From Escherichia phage FEC14: a stretch of 64,000 nt of DNA. A model generated the notes under the pieces. It did no database searches. It worked only from the letters and a program-made list of their open reading frames with translations, and was not told where the DNA came from. Numbering within the stretch: the first letter of the stretch is position 1; each line of letters opens with the position of its first letter. A program made the translations under genes and the position numbers. Below are positions 3,063 through 48,316 of this stretch, piece by piece. Location: the sequence record MG383452; one strand, 5' to 3'.

Positions 3063-3270
3063 TAATCACGGAAGATGATAGATAAAATTCTCGCAGAACT
3101 TTTTGGTGTATTTCTTTAGAAATATAAATTTAGGTTCGCGTGGTGTATCTTTCAGATCATTTAGTGTGATATAACTGATTCGCGCCAGAAAGTACATGGT
3201 AAAAGCGACACAAAGAATCAAAATTAATTGCAGCATAGCTAACTCCATATGGGTGTGAAGGCAAACATAT

Positions 3271-18394: not shown

Positions 18395-19036
18395 TTATTC
18401 CCCGAAGTCTATCTTCATTTTATTGGGCGAAAGATCTTTCTCTATTTCGTCCGCAAATTGGTTATCCGTTTGCAGGCTGGCGTCTTTGTACACACCGTCT
18501 CCTTCCAGATCCTGCAATCGTTTATCGATATCGTCTATTTCAGATACACCTGTATCGAAATCTTCGTTACCGTATTGGAACAACGTACATGGTAGGGAAT
18601 ATGTGTACCATTTCCCAAATTGCATGAATTCTTCATCGTTGTTCGGGTTATTCACTTTAAATATTTTGTTAGCCATAGGCAGATATATCAAATCACCTTC
18701 TTGAGGCATTTGTTCAAGGCCTGGACCATTACCAATAACTTCTGAAAAACGACGACGAGCAATAGTGAAGGTCACTTCATCTTGTAATTGGATACCGCCG
18801 AACTTTTCCCACATCTGTGTGTTGAAGCCTTGATAATCCTGCATATACACTTCGATGTCAAACGCTTGGTCGAATTTGTGTTCGGCCTCGTTTAAAATTG
18901 GGTATTTTTCAACAATAGAACGTGGGATATACTTGACGTCAATCCCACGCAATTGTATCATCTCGACCACCAAGTCATCAATTAATTTTTGAGTACCTTG
19001 ATGTGCTGTATAGTTGAAATATTTTGAAGTAGCCAT
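18395..19036 (-). CDS. neck protein (gp14 position)
   Basis: 213 aa; called from T4 synteny only. Confidence 0.45.
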   Translation of the reverse strand: MATSKYFNYTAHQGTQKLIDDLVVEMIQLRGIDVKYIPRSIVEKYPILNEAEHKFDQAFDIEVYMQDYQGFNTQMWEKFGGIQLQDEVTFTIARRRFSEVIGNGPGLEQMPQEGDLIYLPMANKIFKVNNPNNDEEFMQFGKWYTYSLPCTLFQYGNEDFDTGVSEIDDIDKRLQDLEGDGVYKDASLQTDNQFADEIEKDLSPNKMKIDFGE

Positions 19037-19059
19037 GACTTTACCCTCAATTTTGAAGG

Positions 19060-19066
19060 TATTTAG
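19060..19066 (-). promoter_or_regulatory. late-promoter-like CTAAATA box
   Basis: Minus strand reads tgaCTAAATAcct about 25 nt upstream of the gp14-like ATG. Confidence 0.4.
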
Positions 19067-19097
19067 TCAATCATTAATTCTTTTGAGGAATTGATAA

Positions 19098-27960: not shown

Positions 27961-28000
27961 TCTCTAGTAAATACCCTCCGAAGAGGGGTATATTTTTAAA
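27961..28000 (-). promoter_or_regulatory. intergenic hairpin upstream of tailspike 1 (variant of the tailspike promoter-hairpin element)
   Basis: taccctc-cgaa-gaggggta hairpin, then AGGAG RBS and ATG on the minus strand. Confidence 0.35.
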
Positions 28001-30761
28001 TAGAAGAATCCAATATACGGTAACTAATTAACTTAGTAGGGTCTACAGGATTAATCAGGTTGTAGTACCGTGAAGCTACATAATCATTCTCAGAAGAGAA
28101 CATACCAACATACACTTTAGCACCTACACCAGAACAGGCATCCCCACCAGCATTGCTATCCGAGAAGAATGTTAATGAAGAAGTTAATCCGAATATAGAA
28201 TTAAATGGTACAGCTAAATAAGCGCCTCGGAATGACCGTCTGATTCTCTTACCCGTCTGAATATTAAGAATACTCCACCAGAAATATCCAGGTTTAGCAC
28301 CAATAGCTATATGATATGGCACACCACTTTGTAGTTTAAGGTCGTTAGGTAAATCCCCAGATAAAATTTGGGTTGTACCATCGCCCCCCAATAGCAAAGC
28401 AATTGTTTGTTTTCCAGAAGCGTCTATAACTAATTGAAGATGAAGACTGTTGGATGTATCACTAAACCCTGAACCAATGGCCATGAAGTTAAATACTTCA
28501 GCTCCAGATATGGTGGGTACTACAACAGCAGCCATGGTAATACCTTCTGGACCTGCTGTTCTTGAATACAGTAATTTATCTTTGTTGGCTTGTGATAGTC
28601 TCAGACCATTTACTTGCCCTACAGAAGATGGGACACTTACATAAACAGGTGTAGTGCTAACACCATCAAATGTAGGGGTCTCGTTCATGGTTTGCAAACC
28701 AGTCTTGGAATAATTAACCAATCCGTTAATGCTCAGGTCGGAATTGGTGGGGTTGATAATATTGTTATCACCAATAAAGTTAATGCCCATATAACCAGTC
28801 TCAACCACACCATTAATGGTGACACTACAATCATTAGACAGGAACTGAAAATTGCCTGCACTAGAGTTAGCACCTGAACCACTATTCGCGGCATAATTGA
28901 GTCCTACGAATCCGTTGATAACTGCATCACTTTTGTTAAATACGATGTTGTAGAAAGTGTTGTTAGCATTGATGCCGTTACGATTGGTGTTCAATCCGTT
29001 CATGGAAATTGAATATGACTCGCTAATCTCAATACCATTCCCGCCACAATCTTGTACCTCAATACCATTAATAACCATATTCTGGCTGTTATTAATAGTA
29101 ATGCCTGGAAACTGTCCTACTGTACCATAAGGTTGCCAGTTAGCCCAAATGAATTTACCGCCAATAATACGACCATTACCACAACCATCAAGAACTAGAC
29201 ATTGTTTACCGCAGGTATTAACCTGGATATTTGTCCAAGTCCAATCAGTAGTAGCACAACGGACACCCACCTGATTGATGTGGTTGACTAAAAGAGAATC
29301 TGTAGTAACACTAAAGTTACCACTATCAATATTTAACCCATATTCATCAAAACCTGCTATATGGACCTTAGAAATACACAAGTCCCGTCTTGGGTCTGCG
29401 GTAGTGTGGAACGGATAATCGGCTGAGAGACCTGAAGGAGTTTCTACATAGATACCTGTTGTGCCCGCAGTAAATGACGTGCCTTGTTGTGCACCTGTGC
29501 CATATACCCCAAAGGCGTCTAATACAATAAGGGAGCATGTATCTTTTATGGTAATACAATTCCCAGTAGCAGAAGGCAACTGATGCAACCTTGAGTAATG
29601 TAATCCAGACCCATAAATAGACGACGTATTATATTTTAACTGGATATTGCTAACGTAATGTACACCAGTTAATTGTGTGGCCTTACCACTATCCACACAA
29701 GATTGTACTGGAATAGTATCATCATTAGAACCACCCAAAGCACCAAACATGAATGGGTTAACTCTATCAGCATTAACACGTAACCATGCTGCGCCGCCAA
29801 CAGTTTTGATCACAGTACCGTTATTATCAGTCTTTCCTGTACCATCAATTAACGCACGGAATACCCCTCCACCAAGAAGAGTACCCGCAGTGTGTTGCTT
29901 AAGAATAATGCGTTGTCCATCCATAGTGGGTTCAGTATTCCTGAGATCAGCAACAGAATGGCATTCTCCAATATACTTGGCACCATCATTGCGCCCCAGA
30001 GTGTTTATCACATTAATAAATGAATCTTCTAAAGGCAACAAATCAACCTGCACATCACCTGGGTTGTAATTCAATTTCCCAGCAGATACAGAAGAAATGA
30101 CAGAACCATCAGGAATGGTTGGTAAACCATAACTGGTTTGCGTCGCTATATCATAAACAACTTTCTTCCCATCCAACAAAGATATGGTGTCCGTACTAAC
30201 GATGACTTCAGAGTCTTTTACATTAGCAGAACGGGCGATTTCTTGAATACTTCGGTCAAACGCCGGACTGATATTCGGTTGTTTAACAGACATTTCAGCG
30301 ACTACCCAAACGCCTGCAGTCAGTGCAGTTTGCAAAGACACTTTCCCTGTCGTGCTGTTATAGGAATATTCAATTTCGGGTGTTTTGTACTCGCCACCGA
30401 TATAAAGAGATTGGACACCATAGGATGTGAAATCAGGAGTGAACTCGGTTTCACCCCCTACGGCTTGAAATTTGTATATGCGGATACCTTTGGCTGTATC
30501 TTCTGGCGAAAGAATTTTATCGAATAAGCAATACACAACATCGCCTTTGGACAATGCGCGCCCGAGATTCAACGTATTTCCTTCGATTTCAAAGTTGTCT
30601 AACGGAACTTGCATACCACCGTTGATTGTGACTACGCCAGTGACAGGATAGAACGGCAAGGAAAGGAAAGTTTCTCCACCAACATTTGATTTATACGTGA
30701 AAGGAATCTGGTGGGGAGCTGTGATTACGCCGCCGAATAATTCTTCTACATTTCTGGTCAT
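27996..30761 (-). CDS. tailspike protein 2 (right-handed beta-helix-like)
   Basis: 921 aa from the ATG preceded by GGGGTATTTTCAA, matching the start context of the other tailspikes. Gly/Asn-rich repeats (GGKFIWANW...NGIEVQDCGGNGIEI) typical of beta-helix fibres. Confidence 0.7.
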   Translation of the reverse strand: MTRNVEELFGGVITAPHQIPFTYKSNVGGETFLSLPFYPVTGVVTINGGMQVPLDNFEIEGNTLNLGRALSKGDVVYCLFDKILSPEDTAKGIRIYKFQAVGGETEFTPDFTSYGVQSLYIGGEYKTPEIEYSYNSTTGKVSLQTALTAGVWVVAEMSVKQPNISPAFDRSIQEIARSANVKDSEVIVSTDTISLLDGKKVVYDIATQTSYGLPTIPDGSVISSVSAGKLNYNPGDVQVDLLPLEDSFINVINTLGRNDGAKYIGECHSVADLRNTEPTMDGQRIILKQHTAGTLLGGGVFRALIDGTGKTDNNGTVIKTVGGAAWLRVNADRVNPFMFGALGGSNDDTIPVQSCVDSGKATQLTGVHYVSNIQLKYNTSSIYGSGLHYSRLHQLPSATGNCITIKDTCSLIVLDAFGVYGTGAQQGTSFTAGTTGIYVETPSGLSADYPFHTTADPRRDLCISKVHIAGFDEYGLNIDSGNFSVTTDSLLVNHINQVGVRCATTDWTWTNIQVNTCGKQCLVLDGCGNGRIIGGKFIWANWQPYGTVGQFPGITINNSQNMVINGIEVQDCGGNGIEISESYSISMNGLNTNRNGINANNTFYNIVFNKSDAVINGFVGLNYAANSGSGANSSAGNFQFLSNDCSVTINGVVETGYMGINFIGDNNIINPTNSDLSINGLVNYSKTGLQTMNETPTFDGVSTTPVYVSVPSSVGQVNGLRLSQANKDKLLYSRTAGPEGITMAAVVVPTISGAEVFNFMAIGSGFSDTSNSLHLQLVIDASGKQTIALLLGGDGTTQILSGDLPNDLKLQSGVPYHIAIGAKPGYFWWSILNIQTGKRIRRSFRGAYLAVPFNSIFGLTSSLTFFSDSNAGGDACSGVGAKVYVGMFSSENDYVASRYYNLINPVDPTKLISYRILDSSI

Positions 30762-30770
30762 TTGAAAATA

Positions 30771-30810
30771 CCCCATAAAGGATTTGCCAATATGGGGTAT
30801 TTAGGCTGAA
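30771..30810 (-). promoter_or_regulatory. late promoter CTAAATAcccc fused to a 5' hairpin whose 3' arm GGGGTATTT precedes the ATG
   Basis: Minus strand reads cagcCTAAATAccccatattggcaaatcctttatggggtattttcaaATG; inverted repeat taccccata / tatggggta. Confidence 0.5.
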
Positions 30811-30866
30811 CTAATAAAATTTATAATAAGATCCCCCCGCTTTTGGCGAGGAGGGATGGTTGTTAA

Positions 30867-32999
30867 TCATATCAATCCGTAAATGACATTGTGTATTGCG
30901 ATACCACCAACAATAGAGGAAACATTGAAATTAATTTCAGCTTTGTAAGCTCCTGGCGGAACGCAATCCACCAAAGCATAAAAGTTGAACGTGTTTCCTA
31001 CTGGGATGTTATATCCTATGGAATCCGCGACAGCATTTCCTTGCTGGTCCAGGAATCTAATTGATGCCAGGGTGGTGGTTGTATTTTTAGCCCAAAAACC
31101 AAGTTGAAAATAACGCCCAGGCTCACAGTCAATGATTGTCTGGGTGAAATTAGCCGCTGCACCCACTGATGGTACGGATAAGACAAAAGAAGTTGAAAAC
31201 ATTAAATCATTAGGGACATCATTTCCTACAGTAGCGGTGACAACGCCGGATCCAGTTTGTGACAGCGCCCAGTTAGATATATTATTAAACTGTCCTGAAC
31301 CGTTACTAATACTGTTTATATGAGGGCTTACAATGCATCCTAAATCCCAGTTACTTGTGATAAATCCTGCGCGTGGATAGCAACCTCTAGACATTACTTT
31401 TTTACTTAATCCGCCTATCAACTGCCTTGTGGCAAATCCAGTAGCAATCGTTGTATTCCCATAGAGTGGTAGCGAACAATTATTTAGAATAACAACCCCA
31501 TCCCCGTTGTTTACAATAGGTACTGTAGAATAATCATTTGGCAACAGTATCGTCGAATCACTGATGCTTAATCGTGAACTACCATCCACAGTAAACCCAA
31601 CGAAACTCTGACCTGGTTGATACTCAATGTTACCGTTTGTGAAAACCATAGTTGCGTTATCAGATAACGCGACAACAGGGTCAAAATATCCTGATTTTTT
31701 ACCTGCTGGCAGAGAGCAGCTATCGAATATAAATTGACCATTAACAAACGTGAAAGGTCCACCGTTGTCAACCATCCAACAATGATTAAATTTTATAACC
31801 TCACCGGAATTCGCTGGTGAATTGAAAATAACAGAATTTGTAAAACTTCTGGACAACGTACATTTATCAAAAAGAATACGATATGCATTATCAAGAAACT
31901 CAATTCCGGCAGTTGAGATAAACCCGCAATTAGATATTCTTAACTCTGAGACTTCTCCACTGGTAGAACCACCGATCGCCAATTTCCTGGTCCCTTTTCC
32001 AACAAATGACACTCCAGTCATTAACGCAGTTGCGTTAATTACATCTCTATTGGTGTAATCCGTGTCTGTATTAACAATGGTTAGATAGTAGCCGCCCGTT
32101 GCAGATGCAGATTCTATTAGAGTACATTTATTTTTTCCAATAAGTGCACCTTTTGCTATATCAAAAATAATCGGTGTTGTTATCTCACCAGAAACAGGGA
32201 CTACACAGTCAAATCCGACGGCATTTATTTTATTGATGAATATAGCCAAATCTCCGGTTCCTGTATAACCAGCTTCGTACACATCCACCACACCGTTGAA
32301 TAATTTCCTTTTCCAAACGACACCATTGCCTTGGAAAGTAACGATATTATCTACCACAGTATCTGAGTTAACAGCCACCATAACACCGCCACCAAGATTA
32401 AACCCGTCAACATACGAATCAAGAATTATAGAATCACCAATTAATCCTGCTATTGATGATAATTCAGAAACTGATGATACGGTTCCTATATAAGATAAGC
32501 CATTCGGTTTATTTAAATTACTTTTCAGAGATGCAACACCAACACTCAACCATGCACCTAAACCAACGCCACCAGATGTTTCAGGTGTTGAGCCAGCATC
32601 GACAGTTTTAGGAAGTGAACCATCCCATCGATATTTTTTATCATCGTGAACAAGAAGTTCATTTTTCACATTAATGATATGGCCGAAATTAAAAGAACCA
32701 GGTAAAGTCACATATTCTTCGCGGCTTACTGCTAATTCCCCAAGGTCAACAGAGCCAGCGGAATGAGTGAGGATGGCTTGTTCGTTCAGGCTTATCGCAG
32801 TCGTTCCTGAAACAATACCCGAAGGAAGAGAATAAGCCCGTTGGGTAGACTCATCATAAATTACTTTAAATCCACCGAGATCAATACCGACAGTGAAATA
32901 AATGACTTCGTCTTCTTTGACACCGAAATTTCGAGCGATAGATTGTTTGTTAACTTCTATGGAAGTGGAGCCGCGTGGTTGATTGAATTGAGAAATCAT
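30867..32999 (-). CDS. tailspike protein 3
   Basis: N-terminus MISQFNQPRGSTSIEVNKQSIARNFG... is paralogous to the tailspike 1 N-terminal module; beta-helix-like body. Confidence 0.7.
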   Translation of the reverse strand: MISQFNQPRGSTSIEVNKQSIARNFGVKEDEVIYFTVGIDLGGFKVIYDESTQRAYSLPSGIVSGTTAISLNEQAILTHSAGSVDLGELAVSREEYVTLPGSFNFGHIINVKNELLVHDDKKYRWDGSLPKTVDAGSTPETSGGVGLGAWLSVGVASLKSNLNKPNGLSYIGTVSSVSELSSIAGLIGDSIILDSYVDGFNLGGGVMVAVNSDTVVDNIVTFQGNGVVWKRKLFNGVVDVYEAGYTGTGDLAIFINKINAVGFDCVVPVSGEITTPIIFDIAKGALIGKNKCTLIESASATGGYYLTIVNTDTDYTNRDVINATALMTGVSFVGKGTRKLAIGGSTSGEVSELRISNCGFISTAGIEFLDNAYRILFDKCTLSRSFTNSVIFNSPANSGEVIKFNHCWMVDNGGPFTFVNGQFIFDSCSLPAGKKSGYFDPVVALSDNATMVFTNGNIEYQPGQSFVGFTVDGSSRLSISDSTILLPNDYSTVPIVNNGDGVVILNNCSLPLYGNTTIATGFATRQLIGGLSKKVMSRGCYPRAGFITSNWDLGCIVSPHINSISNGSGQFNNISNWALSQTGSGVVTATVGNDVPNDLMFSTSFVLSVPSVGAAANFTQTIIDCEPGRYFQLGFWAKNTTTTLASIRFLDQQGNAVADSIGYNIPVGNTFNFYALVDCVPPGAYKAEINFNVSSIVGGIAIHNVIYGLI

Positions 33000-33005
33000 G
33001 ATAAT

Positions 33006-33045
33006 ACCCCATAAAGGATGACCAATATGGGGTATTTAGTCTGAA
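33006..33045 (-). promoter_or_regulatory. late promoter CTAAATAcccc plus hairpin plus GGGGTATTATC-ATG
   Basis: Minus strand reads cagaCTAAATAccccatattggtcatcctttatggggtattatcATG. Confidence 0.5.
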
Positions 33046-33069
33046 CTAATCAAATTTATGAACAAAGGT

Positions 33070-33100
33070 ATAATAAGAACCCCGCCGAAGCGGGGTTCTT
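33070..33100 (-). terminator. terminator hairpin downstream of tailspike 4
   Basis: gaaccccgccgaagcggggttc followed by a T-rich tract. Confidence 0.55.
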
Positions 33101-33101
33101 A

Positions 33102-36100
33102 TTATGATTCTATAATTTTATAGGATAGAGAAACATTACCATCAACTGGAGCAGCATCGATTCCTGTCGGTCTTGTTGCGGTCTTAACCATGACACCAGC
33201 GATAGTTTGTCCAGCAGTTGCACCAATATACTTAGAGCAATTTACTGAATAAAATAATTGCCTGTATTCAATATTACCTTGAACCTCACTTAGAACAACA
33301 TAGGCCGCACCAGCATTAACTGAACAGTTTGTGTGTATGTTTACCTTCTCCCCTGTGGACACTCTGAACATATGACCACCATCTGTAGATATTCCAGAAA
33401 GGCCGATTAGTGATAATGTGCCACCTGCTTTAATAAGGAAACTACTACCAGAATTTGCTTTTAAGCTCCCAGGACCTTCAAACACCACCATCGGCAGTTC
33501 TGTGTTAGATGTAATAACTGATTCTCCAGCATTAAGGTAAACACTTTTACACCTAAAAAGCTGGCATATTTTCGCAATATTAGTTAATTCACGTATAGGT
33601 TTAGTTCCATTGGTCCCCCAGTTATAATTATTACCATTCACTGGGTCTATATAAAGAGTATCTGCTTTTACACCAACAACATCTTTGATATAGAAAATGT
33701 CACCAACTTCCCCAAATTGGAATTGACTTCCCATGTTTGTACAGTCCAGTACCAATGTGGGGTAATTACCAGTACCCCTAACGAGTTTTACGCCACTTAC
33801 TGGCATTTGTCCTCTAACAACATTTCTGGCAGTTTCTGGGCAGTTTTTAAGGAAGTACATACTATCTAGATCAGGGTCTTGTCCTGAAAGACCCACTCCT
33901 GACAACGTAACATCCGAACTGGTATTGATAAGATAGAAACTATGTTTTTTCTTCCCGCCAGATGACTCAATATGGGGTTTATCAACCATAAATAAACCAT
34001 AGGAATCAGTATCTCGACCAGCGTGAACAAAGTCGAAGGATGCTTGTTCGATGATTGGGCTATTAAACTTAACCTCTGAACCTGCAAACTGAGTGACGGC
34101 AACATCACCTACCTCAGTAAATCCTGCTGGTTTATACACCGCTTGTTCCAACTCACCATTAGTATTACCAAGGCGAGAAATGTAAGCATTGTTTACAGCA
34201 GCACCGCCATTAGAGTCAATGAACACTGCGCCCTGAGTTTTATACAGGATACGTAGATTTTCATGAACAGAACCCCATGATGCTGACTGCAACAATCCTA
34301 CTCTTGGCAGTCTTGCTGTTGTAATATCGCTCCCTGTATTCTCCCCAATGGATAACCCTTTTGTAGTGCAACCTGCCCCACCTATCCATTTAACACCAAC
34401 CTTTACACCTGGTGCTGTAATCAGGTTAAGGTTACTAATATCAATTTTTCTGGCACATGTTACAGCGTCCCCATTATCAATATCTAACCCAGTAGGATAA
34501 TAATCTACATCTTTATTGAGTTTGTATGAACCATCAGGCTGTTTACGGTACACCATTAAGCTGATTGCTGCTGTATTCTTATCTACTGGGTCATAAAACA
34601 ATCCTTGCTTACACTCACGAGTAAAAAAGTTTGGTGCAGGCATTTCAATTGAAACACCTGGAGGTATGTATAGCGTCTCTGTGAAACGGTATAACTTGGT
34701 CAGGTTAATTTTTACTGCTACTTTCTCCATGTACGAGTTTACAGCCGCAGCATCAGGAAGTGTTTCAGGAACGTTGTTTATGTCTGAAAGCATTTCTTTT
34801 AATTTTGAAGTATCGTCAGCTATTCCGTCGCCTACCGCATTGTACTGTTCAGGTGTGCGTACAGTTAATACATTATTTAGCGTCCCGTGCGGATGAACTC
34901 CAATCAACGATCCATTACCGTTTGCCAGTTGTGTTCTCAATGAGGCATCACCAACACTAATCCATGCGCCAACACCAACGCCGCCTGTTGTCGCAGGAGT
35001 TGAGCCAGGAGCAACGGTTTTAGGAAGTGTACCATCCCAACGATACTTTCCATCCGTGTGAGTGAGTAATTCATTTTTAACATTGATGACAGCACCAGAA
35101 TCAAATGTCCCAGACAATGTTACGTATTCTTCACGAGATACAGCTAATGCGCCCAGATCAACACTACCAGCAGAATGCACAAGTACAGCCGAAGAACTAA
35201 GGCTGACTGCCGTGGTTCCAGTCGGTAGCTCTGGAATAAAATATGATCTCTGTGTTACTTTATCATAGATAACTTTATATCCACTTAACACAGCACCAAC
35301 ACTAAAATAAATGACCTCTGTATCTTTAACATTGGTTACACGAGCCACTTCCCGCAAAGTATAATCAATTTGATTATAGATGTTTGGCGTTCCATTGATA
35401 ATTACAACAACTTCATCCTCCGCATCCAGTTCTTGCGCAAGAGTGATTTTACTGGTTAATGGATCGAATGTGAACCCCAGATTTTTATACTGGCGACTTC
35501 CGTTTATATCAATGGCCGGAACATCATCAACAACGATGTCTAGCGTTATTTCGGTTTCGCCACCGATAGCGGATCCGCCATTGTAAATCCAGGTGATTGC
35601 AGAAGCGCCCGAACCCCCGCCGCCAGTGCCCAATTGAATAGGAGTATATTCAATCACCTGAAGTTCTGTGTTGGCTGGCAAAGAAGGACTGAAAGTGATT
35701 ACATTCCCATCTAGTGAATATTTGGATTCCGCAAGACGTTTTCCGTCAGTATACACGTCCACGATTGTTGGTGGAGTATTGAGAGTGACAGCACTTGTTT
35801 CAGACGCCAAAATTTGTGTAAAGATTTCACGACTGTAGACACGGCCTTGGCCAAGACCGACGCCGGATGTGATAACCCAACCTTGTTCAGGTCCAGACCA
35901 AGTGAACGTTGCTGATACGTTATCAGTTGTTATAGCCATGTCTTCAGTGGAGCCATACAAATTATTTCCAGAAGGAGACACGGTCAATGGGTAAGTGGCA
36001 AATTTCCCATAAGCATCACAAATAGTAACGGAATCCCCAATACGCGTAGGGGAAGGGAGAACCACTGTAGATGTCCCTGTGGTATTATTAATGAGATATC

Positions 36101-36392
36101 CACGACCTTCTAACAAATTGCTAGAGGGAGCGTGAGGGAGCGTTTCCCAGCGTATTCCACCACCCCCCAAAGACAACCAACCACCGTTTTCGTAATAACC
36201 TTCAAATTCATCACTATCAGGATTGTAACGCACAGAAGATGGAAGACCTGTAACTTCAGTATCTTCAGGAAATGTCATTACGGCACCAGGGGAATGCTCA
36301 ATAGTGCCGGAGTTGTTGAAGCCTTTTATGTTCGAAGACTCAGAAGTTTCTAAACCCAAAGGGAAAAGAGGCTGTGTTGGTTTGTTGGCCAT
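33102..36392 (-). CDS. tailspike protein 4 (1096 aa) carrying an internal copy of the shared tailspike module
   Basis: Residues about 335-480 (VKDTEVIYFSVGAVLSGYKVIYDKVTQRSYFIP...) repeat the N-terminal module of tailspikes 1 and 3. Confidence 0.7.
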   Translation of the reverse strand: MANKPTQPLFPLGLETSESSNIKGFNNSGTIEHSPGAVMTFPEDTEVTGLPSSVRYNPDSDEFEGYYENGGWLSLGGGGIRWETLPHAPSSNLLEGRGYLINNTTGTSTVVLPSPTRIGDSVTICDAYGKFATYPLTVSPSGNNLYGSTEDMAITTDNVSATFTWSGPEQGWVITSGVGLGQGRVYSREIFTQILASETSAVTLNTPPTIVDVYTDGKRLAESKYSLDGNVITFSPSLPANTELQVIEYTPIQLGTGGGGSGASAITWIYNGGSAIGGETEITLDIVVDDVPAIDINGSRQYKNLGFTFDPLTSKITLAQELDAEDEVVVIINGTPNIYNQIDYTLREVARVTNVKDTEVIYFSVGAVLSGYKVIYDKVTQRSYFIPELPTGTTAVSLSSSAVLVHSAGSVDLGALAVSREEYVTLSGTFDSGAVINVKNELLTHTDGKYRWDGTLPKTVAPGSTPATTGGVGVGAWISVGDASLRTQLANGNGSLIGVHPHGTLNNVLTVRTPEQYNAVGDGIADDTSKLKEMLSDINNVPETLPDAAAVNSYMEKVAVKINLTKLYRFTETLYIPPGVSIEMPAPNFFTRECKQGLFYDPVDKNTAAISLMVYRKQPDGSYKLNKDVDYYPTGLDIDNGDAVTCARKIDISNLNLITAPGVKVGVKWIGGAGCTTKGLSIGENTGSDITTARLPRVGLLQSASWGSVHENLRILYKTQGAVFIDSNGGAAVNNAYISRLGNTNGELEQAVYKPAGFTEVGDVAVTQFAGSEVKFNSPIIEQASFDFVHAGRDTDSYGLFMVDKPHIESSGGKKKHSFYLINTSSDVTLSGVGLSGQDPDLDSMYFLKNCPETARNVVRGQMPVSGVKLVRGTGNYPTLVLDCTNMGSQFQFGEVGDIFYIKDVVGVKADTLYIDPVNGNNYNWGTNGTKPIRELTNIAKICQLFRCKSVYLNAGESVITSNTELPMVVFEGPGSLKANSGSSFLIKAGGTLSLIGLSGISTDGGHMFRVSTGEKVNIHTNCSVNAGAAYVVLSEVQGNIEYRQLFYSVNCSKYIGATAGQTIAGVMVKTATRPTGIDAAPVDGNVSLSYKIIES

Positions 36393-36397
36393 TTGTA

Positions 36398-36436
36398 ATA
36401 CCCCTAAATGTATTCATGTCATCTAGGGGTATTTAG
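36398..36436 (-). promoter_or_regulatory. late promoter CTAAATAcccc plus hairpin plus GGGGTATTACAA-ATG
   Basis: Minus strand reads aaaaCTAAATAcccctagatgacatgaatacatttaggggtattacaaATG. Confidence 0.5.
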
Positions 36437-36438
36437 TT

Positions 36439-37629
36439 TTAGAAAGAAGCTGCAATAGAATAGTCGACAGAACAAGCAGTTGTCGTGTTTGCATTAACAA
36501 CGGAAATTCTCAATTTACCACCCACCACAGCCCCTGTGAACGTCACTGTACCGCTCGTACTTTTCTGAACCAACAACTCTGTTTTGATCGTTCCGTCACG
36601 AGTTATGGTTACTCGATATGTGTCAACAACGTTACCTGTCCCCCATTGCGCAGTTACCAGTATTTGACAAAGGTTCACCAAATCAAAATCTGGAAGAGCC
36701 GTCGTTCCAGAAGCCGAAACCGTGTATGACGACAAATTCGTTTTGGTACGATAAACGGCGTTCCCCAAACTATTGTCGATAGAGGTCATCTTGGCATTAT
36801 ACGTTGATACACTAACTTTATCACTGGAAAGAGAACTGATGCTGTTATCCAGAGATGTCATCTTCGTGTTGTACGTGCTAACCTCGACTTTATTACCCAG
36901 AGACGTATTGATATTGGAGATACTCAAATCCAATGACGCCATCTTAGTGTTGTAAGTCGAGGTGTTGACTTTCCCGTTCAACGACGTGTTGATGTTATTA
37001 ATCTGGGACTCTAAACTCAGCATATCTGCATCATACGCTGTCGTTGTCACATATCCATTAAATCGGTTATCTGCAAACAACGCATCAAAAAATGCAGTCA
37101 TTGTCCAATAACGCGCTCCAGAATCTGTTTGCACTGGAACTGAAGTCGGCAACGTTGGTCCGGTATACGCAGACAATCTGGTGAAATCCAAATTGAATTT
37201 GTAATATCCGGATGTCAACAACTCCCCAGCCAAACCAGAACCAGGCGGGGTAGTGTCTTCACTGACGCCATGCTTTCTCAACATGCTCAGGTTAACACCA
37301 TCTGTCGAGTTCGTTGGTTCATCTGTGATTGAAACGGATTTTCCAGCAGGGACTTGTATACCCCCATTGGTCACCAACAAAGCATTGAAAGTCTTTTTGC
37401 CATTGATTGTTTGTTCACCACTATCTGTCCGAATAACTTTGTTGGCCAAAGTATCATTGATTGTGTCAACAGATCTTTTCAACTCGTATGTCAGGCGAGC
37501 AGACGGTGGAAACAATGGGTCGCTGACTTCAAAATCATCAATGACGTCGTTTTTACTTACTTTGTCGTCAACAGAACCCAATATCTGATCTATCTGCTGA
37601 CCTGTATATTGACTCAGGAAATCGGCCAT
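36439..37629 (-). CDS. tail fibre-like protein with internal tandem repeats
   Basis: 396 aa with repeated ...STYNTKM(A/T)SLD.SISN... units and an AAGGAG RBS. Confidence 0.55.
   Translation of the reverse strand: MADFLSQYTGQQIDQILGSVDDKVSKNDVIDDFEVSDPLFPPSARLTYELKRSVDTINDTLANKVIRTDSGEQTINGKKTFNALLVTNGGIQVPAGKSVSITDEPTNSTDGVNLSMLRKHGVSEDTTPPGSGLAGELLTSGYYKFNLDFTRLSAYTGPTLPTSVPVQTDSGARYWTMTAFFDALFADNRFNGYVTTTAYDADMLSLESQINNINTSLNGKVNTSTYNTKMASLDLSISNINTSLGNKVEVSTYNTKMTSLDNSISSLSSDKVSVSTYNAKMTSIDNSLGNAVYRTKTNLSSYTVSASGTTALPDFDLVNLCQILVTAQWGTGNVVDTYRVTITRDGTIKTELLVQKSTSGTVTFTGAVVGGKLRISVVNANTTTACSVDYSIAASF
36785..37010 (-). repeat. about 57-bp tandem repeats (3-4 copies) inside the tail-fibre gene
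   Basis: Repeated DNA units ...catcttggcattatacgttgatac... / ...catcttcgtgttgtacgtgctaac... / ...catcttagtgttgtaagtcgaggt... corresponding to 19-aa protein repeats. Confidence 0.5.
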
Positions 37630-38486: not shown

Positions 38487-40251
38487 AGCGCACCTCTGGC
38501 GTAACAACCACATCACCAATCTTGAATACTTGGTTTTGTGTAGCCTGTATGTTCTGGTTCAGTCCATCCGGTAACACGACTATGGTCACCCCTTCAGGGT
38601 TATAGTTAGAGACCGTGATCTGCTGAAGGTCTACAACCCCATTTGCATAATCCACAACCCCTGTTTTTTGAACTAAAAACTCTTTTGTCGTGTCATTGTT
38701 ATTCACTTTATACATGTTCAAATCGCCATTATTGTCGCGCATGTAGTAAGTGAAATCCACCTCGGCAGGAAGCGGTTTGAACCCCGTTATTTTCACAGAA
38801 CCAGGTTTGATACTTCGTCCATAACTGAATGTGAAACTGTCTAAGACTCCATAATCAGGTTTGAAATGGCGTTTATAACCAACCGAAGTAATATTCGAGT
38901 TAATAGAACGCTCCATTTTTGTAATTGCTTCCTGCAATATTTCTTTGTCAAACAATTGATCAAATCCGCCGAGATTATTTTCACCCCATTTAACGATACT
39001 GTTTCCAACAACAACTTTCATCTGTTCTTCAACGTAGACTGTAGAAGTAGGATCCCAAAATATAGTCGTTGAGACTTGGATATATGTGATCTCGGAGTCT
39101 ACTACTTTGGGGGTAATAGATCCCACATTATACTTGTCCAGAGCAGCAACGATATCGGCCTTCTCAGCGTCCGAAAGTGTCTCACCAACAGAAGGTATAA
39201 CAGCGATGTAAACATAGCCAGAATCAGGAGGAGACAGCGTGTCACCACCATATGATTTAGCTCGGGAGACGTTGGAGAATAACCTTTCAGTCAATACACC
39301 ATAATCTGTTTCTGTAACCGCCGCACCATCAGCCTGATAAGCTAAAGGAGCCAACCGTTTAGTGTCCTCAATAGATTCTGGATCGTCTCCACCTGCGCTA
39401 CGTTCGGAAACCAATTCTACGTCGACCTGGTTAAACCCGCCTATGGATGACGCTGATGACAGGCTTGTAATATCATTCCCATCAGCACCAGAAGTTTCTA
39501 AGTATTGAAGGAATATGACGTTCCCATCTTCTACTCGACGCGAAAGATAACCATCTCCGAATTCAAACACATACAGACCATCAATACCCAATTCTACGAA
39601 ATACAGGTAGGCATATTGGCTCAGATCAAATGGACTGTTGTAACGTTGATATGTCGTCGAAACGTCGGAAGACTCTGATTCTTGTACTTGCACGACCATA
39701 TGATTGATATCGACATTCCCAGAAGGAATCGTATATGTTGAAATCGCGCTTCCTTCAACATCATATGTCTTGTACAACCAATTCCCCTGTACCAACTTTA
39801 CATTGTTGAACATGTAATAACCGTCTGCAGTCAACGTTGCCGACACTGGTTTCTCAACAGTAAAGTTGTAGGAACTGCCGTCTTTTGCCCCAACGAACAT
39901 TACGCGCCGATCCATGATGATCTCATTGGGGGCTGTGCTGGCGTCATAAGGCGTAACTTTGATGTTGACATACATGTATGCTGCCCGATAGTTGTCAGGC
40001 GTGTAGGAAAGAAATGCAGCAGATAAACCGACGTTTGAACGTTGATTTGCTGTCTTCAAATGGCCTTCACCATTAAGCATGTTTTGCATAAAGGCTATGG
40101 CGTTCGCGTCAGATGCCAACAAACGAATAATCGCACTAAGACCAGAACCTTCAAAGTCATAATCTTTAAAGGTGGGATCAGCTTTCATTCGCTGTTTAAT
40201 AATGTATTCAAATGCTCTGACGTCGAGTGAAGGAACTGTTTGCGTGGCCAT
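38470..40251 (-). CDS. baseplate wedge-like protein (gp6 position)
   Basis: 593 aa from the ATG with GGAGA RBS; the track ORF start at 40302 is a non-ATG codon that overlaps the promoter box. Confidence 0.45.
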   Translation of the reverse strand: MATQTVPSLDVRAFEYIIKQRMKADPTFKDYDFEGSGLSAIIRLLASDANAIAFMQNMLNGEGHLKTANQRSNVGLSAAFLSYTPDNYRAAYMYVNIKVTPYDASTAPNEIIMDRRVMFVGAKDGSSYNFTVEKPVSATLTADGYYMFNNVKLVQGNWLYKTYDVEGSAISTYTIPSGNVDINHMVVQVQESESSDVSTTYQRYNSPFDLSQYAYLYFVELGIDGLYVFEFGDGYLSRRVEDGNVIFLQYLETSGADGNDITSLSSASSIGGFNQVDVELVSERSAGGDDPESIEDTKRLAPLAYQADGAAVTETDYGVLTERLFSNVSRAKSYGGDTLSPPDSGYVYIAVIPSVGETLSDAEKADIVAALDKYNVGSITPKVVDSEITYIQVSTTIFWDPTSTVYVEEQMKVVVGNSIVKWGENNLGGFDQLFDKEILQEAITKMERSINSNITSVGYKRHFKPDYGVLDSFTFSYGRSIKPGSVKITGFKPLPAEVDFTYYMRDNNGDLNMYKVNNNDTTKEFLVQKTGVVDYANGVVDLQQITVSNYNPEGVTIVVLPDGLNQNIQATQNQVFKIGDVVVTPEVRYVQRS

Positions 40252-40291
40252 GATAATCTCCATCACCTGAGTTTGAATATGGTGTTGAAGA

Positions 40292-40298
40292 TATTTAG
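40292..40298 (-). promoter_or_regulatory. late-promoter-like CTAAATA box
   Basis: Minus strand reads ttggCTAAATAtcttc about 45 nt upstream of the ATG at 40251. Confidence 0.4.
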
Positions 40299-40368
40299 CC
40301 AACGGGAATCAAAACGCTCGCGCGCGTTTAATTTATTCGAATATACTCGCGAGGGGGCTGACGCCCTC

Positions 40369-40618
40369 GCTCGTAACACCGCCTTGACAGGCAGTCCCAT
40401 TCCACAGCCATGGAGGCTGCTTCTCGTTGTTCGTTAACACTCACAACTCGAAGGGCACCGCGTTAAGATACAGTTTCTTGATGTTGTAGAAAAGCTCGTA
40501 ACACCGCCTTGACAGGCAGTCCCATTCCACAGCCATGGAGGCTGCTTCTCGTTGTTCGTTAACACTCACAACTCGAAGGGCACCGCGTTAAGATACAGTT
40601 TCTTGATGTTGTAGAAAA
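40369..40618. repeat. 125-bp direct tandem repeat, two near-identical copies
   Basis: gctcgtaacaccgccttgacaggcag...gatgttgtagaaaag occurs twice head-to-tail, preceded by hairpin gcgaggg-ggctgacg-ccctcgc; lies in the divergent intergenic region 40303-40728. Confidence 0.8.
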
Positions 40619-43775: not shown

Positions 43776-43851
43776 GGCCCCGTAGCTCAGTGGTTAGAGC
43801 AGTCGACTCATAATCGATTGGTCGCTGGTTCAAGTCCAGCCAGGGTCACCA
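43776..43851 (+). tRNA. tRNA-Met (anticodon CAT)
   Basis: Folds by hand into a cloverleaf: acceptor ggccccg/cagggtc, D-arm gctc-agtggtt-agagc, anticodon loop ctCATaa, T-arm gctgg-ttcaagt-ccagc, 3' CCA encoded. Confidence 0.8.
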
Positions 43852-43858
43852 CTAAATA
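43852..43858 (+). promoter_or_regulatory. CTAAATA late-promoter-like box on the plus strand
   Basis: ctaaataaacc immediately 3' of the tRNA-Met CCA end, about 35 nt upstream of the small ORF ATG at 43889. Confidence 0.35.
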
Positions 43859-43888
43859 AACCAGTTGTTCAATAAACAATTGGTGAGT

Positions 43889-44089
43889 ATGATGAAAACG
43901 TTCGGTGATTTTCTTACTGAGTGGGATGGTCTCGCTACCGACAACAAAGAGATTGTTGAGTTTGTTGAAAAGCGAGGCGATAAGTGGGTTGTCCTTGACC
44001 ACACCAAGACTAAAGTTCTTGGGACACATGACACCAAAGCTGACGCGGACGCCCAATTAAGGGCGATCGAAGCGAATAAACATAGTTGA
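43889..44089 (+). CDS. small hypothetical protein
   Basis: ATGATG start with GGTGAG upstream; lies between two tRNA genes. Confidence 0.4.
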   Translation: MMKTFGDFLTEWDGLATDNKEIVEFVEKRGDKWVVLDHTKTKVLGTHDTKADADAQLRAIEANKHS

Positions 44090-44102
44090 AGGGTTCTATA
44101 TT

Positions 44103-44237
44103 ATGAAGAATATTTGGGTGGTAATTTCCAACAGAATTCGCGCTAGTTGGGAAGGTCGGATGGTGAGCATCAAGAACGGGTCTCATCCAAAAACTTACGA
44201 TCGTTATGATCCTGCCCTGGGTCTTCATGCAGAATAA
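44103..44237 (+). CDS. small hypothetical protein (about 44 aa)
   Basis: Short ATG ORF from my own reading of the plus strand; below ORF-track cutoff. Confidence 0.2.
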   Translation: MKNIWVVISNRIRASWEGRMVSIKNGSHPKTYDRYDPALGLHAE

Positions 44238-44263
44238 AGAGTGTTTACGAAAGTAAGAATAGA

Positions 44264-44339
44264 GACGATGTAGTTCAGTCGGTAGAACGGCGGTCTGTTA
44301 AATCGTATGTCGCAGGTTCAAGTCCTGCCATCGTCGCCA
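44264..44339 (+). tRNA. tRNA-Asn (anticodon GTT)
   Basis: Acceptor gacgatg/catcgtc pairs perfectly; D-arm gttc-agtcggta-gaac; anticodon loop ctGTTaa; T-arm gcagg-ttcaagt-cctgc; CCA encoded. Confidence 0.8.
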
Positions 44340-45006
44340 GGATTATGTCGGGCCTTGCAGGATGGAATAGAGATCCTGTTTTGATGTCCAGGGGAGTCTA
44401 GTATTCAAAGTGAACATATGATAGCTTTGAAGAAACACAAACTAAAGATTGGGGTTTGAATCCCCCGCCCGACGACAAACAATGGGTGTGAAACGAAAGC
44501 AAGTAAGCACGAAGTACGCGAACGACAAGTTCTCTCGAGCGACGTCTAATAGCCGAACGGAATCTGAACCCGACGAAAGTAACGCCCACCAAATTCAGAG
44601 TGTAGAGGCTACAGTAGTGCGCACCTCACGGAAAGCTACACCGGACACTCTGATACAAATCTATCACTGCGTGGATTAGCTGAGGAAGGATGGCCGATGT
44701 CCTCAAGCGTGGCCCAGCACGTGGTGGTAGACCAAACACAGTAAGCGTTGCAGCCAGCTGTGTATAAAATGGGGTGACTCCACATCGAAAACGATGCCCC
44801 AACTTCCAGAAATGGTCGGGCGCGAAGCCTGTAAAGTTCCAGGAGATCGAACCAGAAGGCACTGGTGCCAGTTAACCAATCGGCGCTGATAAGCGCGGGG
44901 AGTTGGGCTACGGCAGATCAAATGCACAATCGGGTGTGAAGCCCGTCCTAATTTCGCGGGAGCCATAGGGGTTGGCCAGTAGCTGACTGCTCTCCCGCTC
45001 CAAATT

Positions 45007-45095
45007 GGAAGGTTGCCCGAGAGGTTTAAGGGACTCGACTGCTAATCGAGTGGGGCTTTTAGCCCCCGAAGGTTCGAATCCTTCACCTTCCGCCA
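45007..45095 (+). tRNA. tRNA-Ser (anticodon GCT), long variable arm
   Basis: Acceptor ggaaggt/accttcc; anticodon stem ctcga/tcgag with loop ctGCTaa; 17-nt variable arm tggggcttttagccccc; T-arm gaagg-ttcgaat-ccttc; CCA encoded. Confidence 0.8.
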
Positions 45096-45184: not shown

Positions 45185-45479
45185 TCAGAATAATGAGTGT
45201 GACTTCCTGAAGATGAAGAAGGTGTGCATGCCGACTTCATAACAATCTGGGGTTAAGGAAGTTAAGAAAGTCGCAGGATATGCAAGTGAAATGCAAATAG
45301 CTTTCAACGTCCTGACGATTTCGGGTTCGATTCCCGACGCACTCTCCCAAACGCCTAATACTAGAAATTGCTGTGAGTAGTCTTTCCATCCCCACGATGG
45401 TTTAACCATAGCCCGATCAGGAAGATCGGGCTTCTTTTTGTCTATAATAAATAGATCTGGCTTGTAAAGGAGGTCTATT

Positions 45480-45713
45480 ATGGCAACTGCTAAGATCACA
45501 CCAAACGCAAGTACATGGACGCAAGTCTCAGACGGCACATCTTTGAAAACTCTTCAAGTGACTCACGGTTCTGTGTATCTGTGTGATAGCCCCAGCGCTC
45601 CAACGGGTAATAACGCGCATATCATATATCAAGGAAATATGGTCGTTTTAACCCCGCCGACGGTGGGATGGGTTAAGGCAATTAATTCTGATGCGACAGT
45701 TATCGTTTCTTAA
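45480..45713 (+). CDS. hypothetical protein
   Basis: 77-aa ORF, AAGGAGG RBS. Confidence 0.5.
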   Translation: MATAKITPNASTWTQVSDGTSLKTLQVTHGSVYLCDSPSAPTGNNAHIIYQGNMVVLTPPTVGWVKAINSDATVIVS

Positions 45714-47083: not shown

Positions 47084-48277
47084 ATGAACAAAACCATCTT
47101 CGATACCCTTTCCCTCGACCGTAATCTGGTTCACTGGGAAGATTATCTCTACAAACACACCCCTTGCGAACTCATTGCCAATCCAGAAACCAATCAGCAG
47201 GTTTGGTTCAAACGTGAAGATTACTTCGCGCCTTTGTCATGCTATATGAATGGCAAGCAGGGGATCAATGGCAGCAAACTCCGTCAGGCCATCTGGCTCA
47301 TGATGGAGCATCTGAAAGCGGGAGGATCCCCAGATCTTATCCATGGTACTGTCGTTGGTAGTCCGCAGTCCCCTATGGCGACGGCAGTCTCACGGCATTT
47401 CGGCGGCAAGACAACCACTGTGCTGGGTGCCACTAAACCAACCACATGCATGAATCATGATATGGTTTCAATGTCAGCATGGTTTGGTAGTGAGTTCAAC
47501 TTTGTTGGATCTGGTTACAATAGCACCATTCAGCCGCGCTGTAAGAAACTCATTGAACAATTAAATCCAAAGGCGTATTATCTGGAATATGGCATTACAT
47601 TGGATCATACCGTTCATTCACCAGAACGCATTGCTGGATTCCATATGCTGGGCGGGGAGCAGGTTGCCAACATCCCTGACCATATTACCGATCTAATTAT
47701 CCCTGCTGGTTCTTGTAACTCATGTACAAGCATCCTGACCGGACTGGCAATGCATCCGAAACCAAATCTGAAGAATGTCTATCTGATCGGGATTGGACCA
47801 AACCGATTAGATTTCATTGAAAGTCGTTTGCGCATTATCGGTAAGCAAGCAAACCTCCCTCACATAACTGATTTCACTCGTCGCTATCACGACAACCCAG
47901 ACTATGTGTATGGTAAGAAGGATCTCCAGCATGCCTCTAAGAGCGTTTCGCTGGCTGGCCTCCTAAGTGGTATCAGGCCAAAGAACGAGCCGGATATCGT
48001 GCTTCCTCGTTTTGAGGTACACCATTGGGATCTTCATACCACTAATTGGGTTCGTTACAACGACCTCATGGATTACCAGTGGGGAGATATTGAGTTGCAT
48101 CCTCGTTATGAAGGGAAGGTGATGACATGGATACAGGAACACAAACCAGAATTGCTTAATGAGAACTCATTGTTTTGGATCGTGGGTAGCAAGCCATATC
48201 TGGAAGCGATGAAAGCTGCTTGTCCTGAATTATCAATACCTGAACATGTCCCTGTGAATGAGTTTGTCCCCAGCTAA
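47084..48277 (+). CDS. putative PLP-dependent enzyme (ACC-deaminase / D-cysteine-desulfhydrase-like fold)
   Basis: N-terminal WFKREDYFAPLSCYMNGKQGINGSKLRQ resembles, from memory, the conserved region of that family that carries the PLP-binding Lys. AGGAGA RBS. Confidence 0.45.
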   Translation: MNKTIFDTLSLDRNLVHWEDYLYKHTPCELIANPETNQQVWFKREDYFAPLSCYMNGKQGINGSKLRQAIWLMMEHLKAGGSPDLIHGTVVGSPQSPMATAVSRHFGGKTTTVLGATKPTTCMNHDMVSMSAWFGSEFNFVGSGYNSTIQPRCKKLIEQLNPKAYYLEYGITLDHTVHSPERIAGFHMLGGEQVANIPDHITDLIIPAGSCNSCTSILTGLAMHPKPNLKNVYLIGIGPNRLDFIESRLRIIGKQANLPHITDFTRRYHDNPDYVYGKKDLQHASKSVSLAGLLSGIRPKNEPDIVLPRFEVHHWDLHTTNWVRYNDLMDYQWGDIELHPRYEGKVMTWIQEHKPELLNENSLFWIVGSKPYLEAMKAACPELSIPEHVPVNEFVPS

Positions 48278-48283
48278 TCCATC

Positions 48284-48316
48284 CTAAATACCCCATACGA
48301 CCAGTGTGGGGTATCT
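48284..48316 (+). promoter_or_regulatory. late promoter CTAAATAcccc plus hairpin plus GGGGTATCT-ATG (plus-strand copy of the tailspike element)
   Basis: atcCTAAATAccccatacgaccagtgtggggtatctATG. Confidence 0.45.

Follow-up and report, generated by a model that had tools for sequence, protein, structure and literature searches.

Late promoter boxes overlapping Shine-Dalgarno hairpins at gene starts of Escherichia phage FEC14

Introduction

What is the role of a hairpin that lies between a late promoter and the start codon of the same gene? The question is raised by a stretch of 64,000 nucleotides (nt) from Escherichia phage FEC14 (record MG383452; the whole stretch is called the window), for which an initial annotation had listed six gene starts sharing a late-promoter-like CTAAATA box, an adjoining CCCC, an inverted repeat and an ATG. 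The 5' end of the late transcript was proposed to fold into the hairpin, stabilizing the mRNA and controlling its translation. We found that the hairpin starts inside the promoter box and that its 3' arm contains the Shine-Dalgarno (SD) sequence of the gene. The best-supported mechanism, which we consider probable, is a switch as in genes e and 49 of phage T4, in which the ribosome-binding site would be hidden in longer RNAs and free in RNAs from the embedded late promoter.

Positions 28000-37000 of the window are 95.5% identical to Escherichia phage CBA120, and the same region matches 274 phage records, nearly all of them ViI-like enterobacterial phages (Ackermannviridae, Kuttervirus). Judging from this similarity, the source phage is a ViI/CBA120-like Kuttervirus.

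Promoter-hairpin elements in the window

At five of the six listed positions, all on the strand of the downstream gene, we saw the box (CTAAATA, or TATAAATA at 3064-3057), CCCC, the inverted repeat, GGGGTAT and the ATG in the described order; the sixth (27961-28000) is not a member and is discussed with the terminators. The motif search suggested with the initial annotation, TAAATACCCC-N(3-30)-GGGGTAT, gave five matches versus a mean of 0.00 in 100 dinucleotide shuffles. The five sites and their hairpins are real, and the observation is stronger than originally thought. According to the annotation of CBA120, the genes behind 30771, 33006 and 36398 encode the tailspikes (TSP) TSP2, TSP3 and TSP4 (orf211-213), the site at 3033 belongs to an orf171-like gene and the site at 48284 to an orf229-like gene. 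Two details had to be revised: the stems at these five sites are 11-14 base pairs (bp) long instead of 9-10 bp, and they begin inside the box, with AAATA pairing with TATTT, whereas the 5' arm had been placed after the promoter.

Listing all 42 TAAATA hexamers of the window and folding those upstream of gene starts revealed further sites with the same geometry and other stem sequences at 19067-19034 (- strand), 40299-40249 (-), 58831-58869 (+) and, as a borderline case, 45446-45482 (+). We count at least eight such sites in the window and about eleven per complete genome. They are designated below as 3062 (orf171-like), 19065 (neck), 30803 (TSP2), 33038 (TSP3), 36435 (TSP4), 45448 (orf225-like), 48285 (orf229-like) and 58833 (an open reading frame (ORF) of 55 amino acids (aa)), with the remaining one named after its gene, gp6.

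The first element (3032-3064, - strand; folding energy -16.6 kcal/mol, z-score -2.75) precedes the orf171-like gene (2306-3034). Its box TATAAATA at 3064-3057 is overlapped by the 5' arm at 3061-3051 (AAATACCCCCA), the 3' arm at 3046-3036 (TGGGGGTATTT) has the SD inside, and the ATG follows at 3034-3032; the upstream ORF ends with a stop at 3068-3066. The second (19034-19067, -; -9.2 kcal/mol, z -3.45), absent from the initial list, belongs to a neck protein gp14-like gene (18395-19036) and consists of the box aCTAAATA (19067-19060), a 5' arm at 19061-19054 (TACCTTCA) and a 3' arm at 19049-19042 (TGAGGGTA) that constitutes the SD, with the ATG at 19036.

The three tailspike elements have the most stable hairpins. 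The element of TSP2 (orf211 equivalent; 30759-30805, -; -18.8 kcal/mol, z -5.65) has its box cCTAAATA at 30805-30798, the 5' arm at 30802-30791, the 3' arm at 30777-30766 (TATGGGGTATTT) and a likely ATG at 30761-30759. For TSP3 (orf212 equivalent; 32997-33040, -; -19.6 kcal/mol, z -5.22) the box aCTAAATA is found at 33040-33033, the arms at 33036-33026 and 33013-33003, and the ATG at 32999-32997. For TSP4 (orf213 equivalent; 36390-36437, -; -19.1 kcal/mol, z -6.73) the box aCTAAATA (36437-36430) is followed by a 14-bp stem with one G.U pair (36433-36420 / 36410-36397) and the ATG at 36392-36390, while the upstream ORF stops at 36441-36439.

The sixth element (40249-40299, -; -11.6 kcal/mol, z -3.57), also new, lies before the gene for the gp6 baseplate wedge. 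Next to the box gCTAAATA (40299-40292) it has an outer helix at 40292-40286 (ATCTTCA) / 40262-40256 (TGGAGAT, being the SD) and an inner 4-bp helix, with the ATG at 40251-40249. The seventh (45446-45482, +), in front of an orf225-like 77-aa gene, carries the box AATAAATA at 45446-45453 and a 9-bp stem (45450-45458 / 45471-45479) overlapping an AGGAGG SD, followed by the ATG at 45480. The eighth (48283-48319, +; -18.0 kcal/mol, z -4.74) serves an orf229-like 149-aa gene, with the box cCTAAATA at 48283-48290, an 11-bp stem including one G.U pair (48288-48298 / 48304-48314), the ATG at 48317 and the upstream stop at 48275-48277. The ninth (58831-58869, +; -14.4 kcal/mol, z -5.09), not listed initially either, precedes the 55-aa membrane-type ORF (58867-59034, orf249 equivalent) and combines the box TATAAATA (58831-58838) with an 11-bp stem at 58835-58845 (AATATCCTCAC) / 58853-58863 (GTGAGGATATT), where the SD is GAGGA and the ATG lies at 58867.

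The longest ORF of TSP2 begins at an in-frame ATG at 30776, within the 3' arm of the hairpin. From the sequence, ATG 30761 is the likelier start since it has the SD in front. Such in-frame ATGs inside hairpins are chosen as starts by the longest-ORF rule and in GenBank record PQ306799; they include 30776 (-) in the window and positions 3703, 9041 and 36783 of an Agtrevirus genome (L034). The true starts are likely 12-45 nt downstream of them, behind the SD.

Hairpin anatomy and folding statistics

Across the window sites, stems of 8-14 bp enclose loops of 4-13 nt whose sequences are unrelated between sites. The stem begins at position 2-5 of the box (at gp6, with its last base), and AAATA or ATA of the box pairs with TAT(TT), at the nine window sites as well as at the endolysin and resolvase genes of CBA120. 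Furthermore, one-mismatch matches to TAAATACCCC on the opposite strand are hairpin 3' arms, which confirms that the complementarity reaches into the box. The 3' arm ends 0-5 nt ahead of the ATG. At all sites the best duplex with the 3' end of 16S rRNA (UGGGGUA, UGAGGG, UGGAGA, GUGAGGA and others) falls entirely in this arm, 3-7 nt before the AUG, in agreement with the earlier suggestion that the 3' arm supplies the SD.

The window has 131 ungapped hairpins of at least 9 bp, and in seven of them (0.30 expected, p = 3e-8) the 5' arm starts within a TAAATA box; over the full CBA120 genome, 10 out of 283 do so (p = 7.5e-11). All but one of these have an ATG 0-7 nt after them. Folding energies range from -9 to -19.6 kcal/mol, with z-scores between -2.75 and -6.7 against the dinucleotide shuffles of each sequence, whereas the box-bearing leaders of the scaffold, orf192-like, orf209-like and orf230-like genes do not fold significantly better than their shuffles. 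Owing to G.U pairs (8 of 142 pairs), folding is better for the sense than for the antisense strand at 8 out of 12 sites, which favors a sense RNA over a DNA palindrome. At the gathering threshold, no family of Rfam 15 matches the hairpins, the hits in the window being three tRNAs. The conclusion that the inverted repeat is a real, selected hairpin holds.

Late promoter box and predicted transcript start

The boxes read TATAAATA at 3064-3057 and 58831-58838, CTAAATA at six sites and AATAAATA at 45446. The T4 late promoter is a TATAAATA box at -13 to -6 (PMC2988020; PMC1524935), with A(-13) variants in the consensus (PMC2988020), and the predicted late promoter of phage Aeh1 is CTAAATA from -12 (PMC1524935). 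Homologues of gp55, gp33 and gp45 are present in CBA120, ViI and AG3 (PMC3184105). In CBA120 these are orf120 (late sigma factor), orf084 (late promoter regulator) and orf163 (gp45), all three located outside the window region. The boxes precede late genes, namely those of tailspikes 2-4, neck protein gp14 and the gp6 wedge, and in CBA120 also the endolysin gene. The initial assignment as a late-promoter-type element is borne out.

The CTAAATAcccc of the initial annotation is the published Viunalikevirus/Ackermannviridae motif CTAAATAcCcc, quoted in a passage of PMC7283392 as one of two ‘unique regulatory motifs’ of the group (Adriaenssens et al. 2012) and used as ‘known late gene promoter’ in PMC9965104. 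EspM4VN contains five full copies (PMC7283392), and the window five exact copies of TAAATACCCC. The passages on the motif in these two accounts (PMC7283392, PMC9965104) treat it as linear and mention no stem-loop. CCCC follows the box only at hairpin sites where GGGGTAT comes downstream (5/5), and late boxes without a hairpin carry other bases. Because of this restriction, and because T4 late promoters show a preponderance of A+T downstream of the box (PMC2988020), the ‘cCcc’ tail seems best explained as an anti-SD arm rather than a promoter determinant.

With T4 geometry, transcription would start about 6 nt after the box, so that the late RNA would lack the 5' arm and the hairpin would form only in longer read-through RNA. 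An RNA beginning at the sixth nt past the box is predicted to lose 6-10 of the 8-14 pairs and to fold at about 0 to -5 kcal/mol, which does not support the initial idea of a late transcript whose 5' end folds into the hairpin. We further calculated the opening energy, i.e., the cost of making positions -15 to +5 single-stranded, for read-through RNA (from 60 nt upstream) and for late RNAs starting at the fourth, sixth and eighth nt after the box. At eight of the nine sites, opening is predicted to cost 13-21 kcal/mol in read-through RNA versus 4-12 kcal/mol in late RNA, a fall of 7.5-16 kcal/mol, compared to 6-9 versus 3-7 kcal/mol for control box-bearing genes without a strong hairpin. Opening energy replaced the mean unpaired probability, which was dominated by pairing with the downstream coding sequence.

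Conservation in related phages

The elements were compared among Kuttervirus and Agtrevirus-, Limestonevirus- and Miltonvirus-like genomes. In the resolvase stem, 13 pairs are kept with two compensatory double changes (AU to GC, AU to UA) and none broken, around loops of 8-15 nt. According to the folds, four contigs have a G:C pair inserted on both sides; L190 and L196 are described from folds and stand outside the formal resolvase pair count, MAFFT having misplaced the inserted base pair. The endolysin stem varies at three pairs, by G.U wobbles, with one broken cell in the comparison. In phage phiMAM1, one G.U pair is gone from both sides of the TSP4 stem, and the gp6 hairpin is kept with a different sequence (GCTCTAA/TTGGAGT). 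At the orf229-like, TSP and orf171-like sites, the stems stay while the loops change or gain indels. The alignments thus indicate that the structure of the helix, and not just its sequence, is conserved. Vibrio phage D509, whose neck protein is 38% identical, has CTAAATA boxes before structural genes and no clear SD hairpins and is too distant to help, and IMG/VR scans with single proteins reached only relatives within the family.

Proposed mechanism and alternative explanations

We propose that the element is a T4-type (gp55/gp33-dependent) late promoter whose box, together with the next 4-10 nt, would double as the 5' strand of an RNA hairpin, with the SD of the gene as the 3' strand. Longer read-through RNAs, holding both strands, would fold and hide the ribosome-binding site. 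RNA from the embedded promoter, starting about 6 nt after the box, would lack the 5' strand and leave the site free. Efficient translation would therefore depend on the gene's own late promoter. The proposal builds on the observed geometry, the folding statistics, the SD in the 3' arm, the conservation and covariation of the stem and the identical layout of T4 genes e and 49; the positions of the transcription starts, the occurrence of read-through RNA and the consequence for translation enter it as predictions.

Several observations weigh against this switch. Four sites (19065, 30803, 33038 and 45448) have a terminator-like hairpin just upstream (19336-19315, 30853-30833, 33105-33070 and 45410-45432, respectively), because of which little read-through may reach them. 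Upstream genes are co-oriented at eight of the nine sites (tRNA genes at 45448), these four included; gp6, which borders on a divergent intergenic region, has no co-directional upstream gene. Early silencing is a weaker rationale for the tailspikes, as the genes that precede them are late structural genes too. Site 45448 shows no gain in opening energy for the predicted late RNA (9.1 versus 9.4-11.7 kcal/mol) and is kept as borderline on this calculation. The sequence after the box is CCCC, CCTTC or TCCTC at hairpin sites rather than A+T-rich as in T4-type late promoters, late-type boxes without a hairpin being more A+T-rich downstream, and the G+C-rich CCCC could itself affect promoter strength. 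Some close relatives have a neck-gene leader without a hairpin, and in phiMAM1 the hairpin is absent from the neck gene and several other spikes. One tailspike gene of phiMAM1 (L201, 30040-30104) has a box-overlapping hairpin (AAATAATCG/CGATTATTT) with a 3' arm ending just before the SD GCGGAGA, a case that SD sequestration leaves unexplained. Finally, the searchable literature holds no mapped transcript 5' ends for any Ackermannviridae phage, and the key step rests on T4 geometry. Our confidence in the switch is held down by this borrowed start geometry and by the upstream terminators and late-gene neighbors, which blur its biological rationale.

Alternatively, the hairpin might shut the downstream start on a polycistronic late mRNA until a ribosome translating the upstream gene opens it, leaving the promoter a secondary role. 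We regard this as unlikely. The upstream stop codon indeed lies 1-7 nt before the box at 3062, 36435, 48285 and 58833, within reach of a terminating ribosome that could melt the stem base, and at these four sites the gene would then be translationally coupled rather than silent on a polycistronic RNA. The other five sites have no close upstream ORF (terminators, a 270-nt gap or a divergent region lie there instead), and coupling leaves the constant overlap of 5' arm and late box unexplained. It is compatible with the T4-type switch as an added effect.

It is quite unlikely that the hairpins are mainly terminators or attenuators which end the upstream gene and, fused to the next promoter, insulate cassettes transcriptionally, as the separate tailspike cassettes and the TATTTT after several 3' arms would suggest. 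In a scan for a G+C-rich stem, a short loop and a direct T run, none of the nine element hairpins qualified, and dedicated terminators were detected a short distance upstream of four of them. The loops of three stems measure 9-13 nt, the tails are not continuous (TATTATC, TATCTATG, TATTACAA), and a terminator would not need a 3' arm that always coincides with the SD and ends within 5 nt of the ATG.

The initially proposed model, in which the late mRNA begins with the 5' arm or upstream of it and a 5'-end hairpin protects the mRNA while tuning translation by partial masking of the SD, agrees with the stability of the hairpins and their place at the very start of the leaders. We nevertheless find it decidedly unlikely. 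The 5' arm begins within a -10-type box, and RNA polymerase cannot initiate ahead of the -10 element that it uses; the late RNAs of T4 gene e, with the same geometry, are reported to lack the 5' strand. Moreover, a helix of 11-14 bp over the SD, costing 13-21 kcal/mol to open, is hard to square with abundant late structural proteins. Thus, of the coupled effects proposed initially, translational control is likely, and a stabilizing hairpin at the 5' end of late mRNA is not.

A DNA-level function, as a site for a dimeric regulator or a cruciform modulating the late promoter, appears very improbable. The repeat does overlap the promoter box and some copies are near-perfect palindromes (3062). 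The arms, however, differ between sites (CCCCATA, CCTTCA, TCCTCAC, TCTTCA) and so do their spacing (4-13 nt) and loops, the orthologues change by G.U-compatible transitions and compensatory pairs without keeping a half-site sequence, and the 3' arm is bound in position to SD and AUG. Finally, that a required pyrimidine tract after the box happens to complement a purine-rich SD, with no selection on the structure itself, as the weak complementarity at other late genes (14815 TCTTTC/GAAGGA, 25581 CTCTAT/ATGGAG, 48764 GTCC/GGAC) might suggest, is barely credible given strong stems that extend beyond the CU tract and SD (CATA/TATG, TAGATG/CATTTA, CATAC/GTGTG, TCAC/GTGA, also AAATA/TATTT), z-scores down to -6.7, compensatory changes and paired indels in orthologues, and a CCCC found after the box only where GGGG follows (5/5).

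Terminators and neighboring features

The region 27961-28000, initially included as a minus-strand variant of the element, was rejected. It lacks a TAAATA box, the ATG follows after 35 nt at the TSP1 start (27941), which comes with an AGGAG of its own, and the terminator scan calls a hairpin at 27974-27987 (-), CCCTC-TTCG-GAGGG followed by TATTTACT, directly after the TSP2 stop codon. The scan also called a hairpin after TSP1, an intrinsic-terminator-like hairpin after TSP4 and upstream of the TSP3 promoter and hairpin (33070-33105, -), and a similar one after TSP3 (30853-30833, -). Framed by these hairpins, each tailspike gene forms a terminator-bounded cassette.

The leaders of TSP2 and TSP3 have about 65 nt in common. 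Some 30 nt ahead of the boxes (30806-30835 and 33041-33070, -) are also shared; they read ..ATAAATTT(T/G)ATTAGTTCAG(C/A)CTAAATA.. with the box included, are conserved in an Agtrevirus (L034, 8981-9005) and hold a second, imperfect TAAAT-type box. The shared segment could be the border of a duplicated cassette or a second promoter. Between gp6 (-) and an orf218-like gene (+), there is a perfect 125-nt tandem duplication (40369-40493 and 40494-40618); the corresponding spacer of CBA120 is 125 nt shorter, i.e., it has one copy. This divergent intergenic region must hold divergent promoters.

The protein of the orf171-like gene (2306-3034, -) matches only the C-terminal half (259-500 of 500) of phrog_289, ‘GTP-binding domain’, and in CBA120 a separate small ‘GTP-binding domain’ gene (orf174) lies just upstream. 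Compared with its form in other phages, the gene may be split here, and the promoter and hairpin would lie at the split. The 55-aa ORF encodes a hydrophobic N-terminal helix and a strongly charged C-terminus (MLQDLLVYALPGVVVGFVAGALVF...KLDELKKK) and has phrog_3879 (of unknown function) as its only match. In shape it resembles a holin, and its leader has the same arrangement as that of the endolysin gene; no holin was identified in the CBA120 paper (PMC3184105). In addition, an ORF at 12355-12813 (-) separates the genes for tail sheath and tail tube, in the place where CBA120 has orf195, annotated as a GIY-YIG homing endonuclease, and three tRNA genes (43776-45092, +) are located upstream of the orf225-like cassette.

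Implications

The type of switch is already known from T4 e and 49, with a mechanism described since the 1980s, and the general view of late gene control is unchanged; the sites reported here are real and conserved. The analysis offers a testable account of how, in ViI/CBA120-like phages, the tailspike, neck, baseplate, lysis and resolvase genes would each depend on their own late promoter for translation. In this account the tail of a published promoter motif is reinterpreted as an anti-SD arm, and start codons annotated inside the hairpin are flagged. These phages are being rebuilt with chimeric tailspikes and reporter genes driven by this ‘late promoter’ (PMC9965104), and expression in such constructs could change if only the box or only its partner arm were copied.

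A wider view, which we put forward tentatively and hold to be rather doubtful, is that the hairpin gate represents a genome-wide organizing principle of late expression in Ackermannviridae and beyond. The promoter consensus CTAAATAcCcc would then partly be an RNA-structure signal, and the promoter/anti-SD/SD unit a portable cassette insulating horizontally swapped late genes from the transcription around them. If true, about 11 genes per genome would be gated, including every exchangeable tailspike cassette, whereas the T4 device is confined to a handful of genes. The box-CCCC...GGGG-AUG module also recurs in unrelated lineages of the T4 superfamily, at gp13 of marine myoviruses, at RusA-like resolvases and at other lysozymes.

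Comparison with known systems

The 5'-terminal stabilizer hairpins of bacterial mRNAs, e.g., that of the ompA leader, are located at the very 5' end of the transcript, and the SD is not inside them. They resemble the initial idea in being stable stem-loops at the start of a leader, while in the elements described here the 5' arm overlaps the promoter box and the 3' arm constitutes the SD. The PeSL cassettes of T4-type phages, reportedly described by Arbiol et al. in 2010, are said to consist of an early sigma-70 promoter joined to a terminator stem-loop and to occur in hyperplastic regions. They share with the present elements the repetition of promoter and stem-loop modules at gene boundaries and differ in that here the box is a late one and the SD lies in the stem.

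The closest parallel is found in T4, for which we compared genes e, 49, soc and I-TevII. Gene e has the same layout, TATAAATAccttc...GGAGGTATTATG, comprising a late box, a C/U-rich 5' arm and a 3' arm with the SD and UAUU before the AUG. In its leader, TATAAATAccttcTATAAATActtaGGAGGTATTATG, the 5' arm AAUACCUUC starts inside the first box; 9 of the 11 pairs would be missing from a late RNA. As stated in the relevant passages of PMC3014915 and PMC2988022, long (early) transcripts of e form an inhibitory helix and yield approximately 100-fold less lysozyme than transcripts without the structure. Those from the late promoters are missing the helix's 5' part and are well translated (McPheeters et al. 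1986, as reviewed in a passage of PMC3014915), and T4 relatives retain a late promoter where the 5' strand is encoded (PMC3014915; PMC2988022). The likeness extends to the neck gene of the window, which reads CTAAATAccttcaaaattGAGGGTA, and to the CBA120 endolysin gene, which reads TAAATAccttcgca...tgcGGAGGTATTT. T4 e differs in having a second late box in the loop, whereas we found one box per hairpin; unlike in T4 e, this box is mostly CTAAATA and occurs at many sites per genome, with tailspike, neck and wedge genes among them.

Helices sequestering the SD and/or the AUG are further known from soc, 49, I-TevI/II/III, segB and Aeh1 mobE (PMC3014915; PMC2988022). In soc and I-TevII the box precedes the arm or sits in the loop, and pairing may involve the AUG instead of the SD; the homing-endonuclease cases are, unlike the window sites, tied to the biology of introns and mobile elements. 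Gene 49 (endonuclease VII), which was found by our box/hairpin detector, has the same layout as the window sites, AATAAATAcccttatct...aggtaagggTTTATTATG, or in full AATAAATAcccttatct-attta-aggtaaggg-TTTATTATG. It is resembled by the RuvC-like resolvase gene of CBA120 (CTAAATAcccataac/gttatggg against AATAAATAcccttatct/aggtaaggg).

The two strongest additional sites in CBA120, located beyond the window region and with stems of 13 bp each, precede the genes for the endolysin (orf102; AAATACCTTCGCA/TGCGGAGGTATTT) and the RuvC-like Holliday-junction resolvase (orf087; AAATACCCATAAC/GTTATGGGTATTT), which are the functional counterparts of T4 e and 49. Scanning IMG/VR with the initially proposed motif retrieved a homologue of the T-even lysozyme gene e (L084), another lysozyme gene, RusA-like resolvase genes and gp13 genes of marine T4-like phages, each with box, hairpin and ATG. 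Outside Ackermannviridae, L042, L086, L093, L108 and other contigs carry TATAAATACCCCTAGG..CTAGGGGTATTTTTTATG before a gp13-type head-tail adaptor gene, and L039, L060, L074 and L138 have CTAAATACCCCGAAAGGGGTATTTTTTATG before a RusA-like resolvase gene. On these matches, the box/hairpin module appears to be widespread in T4-like phages.

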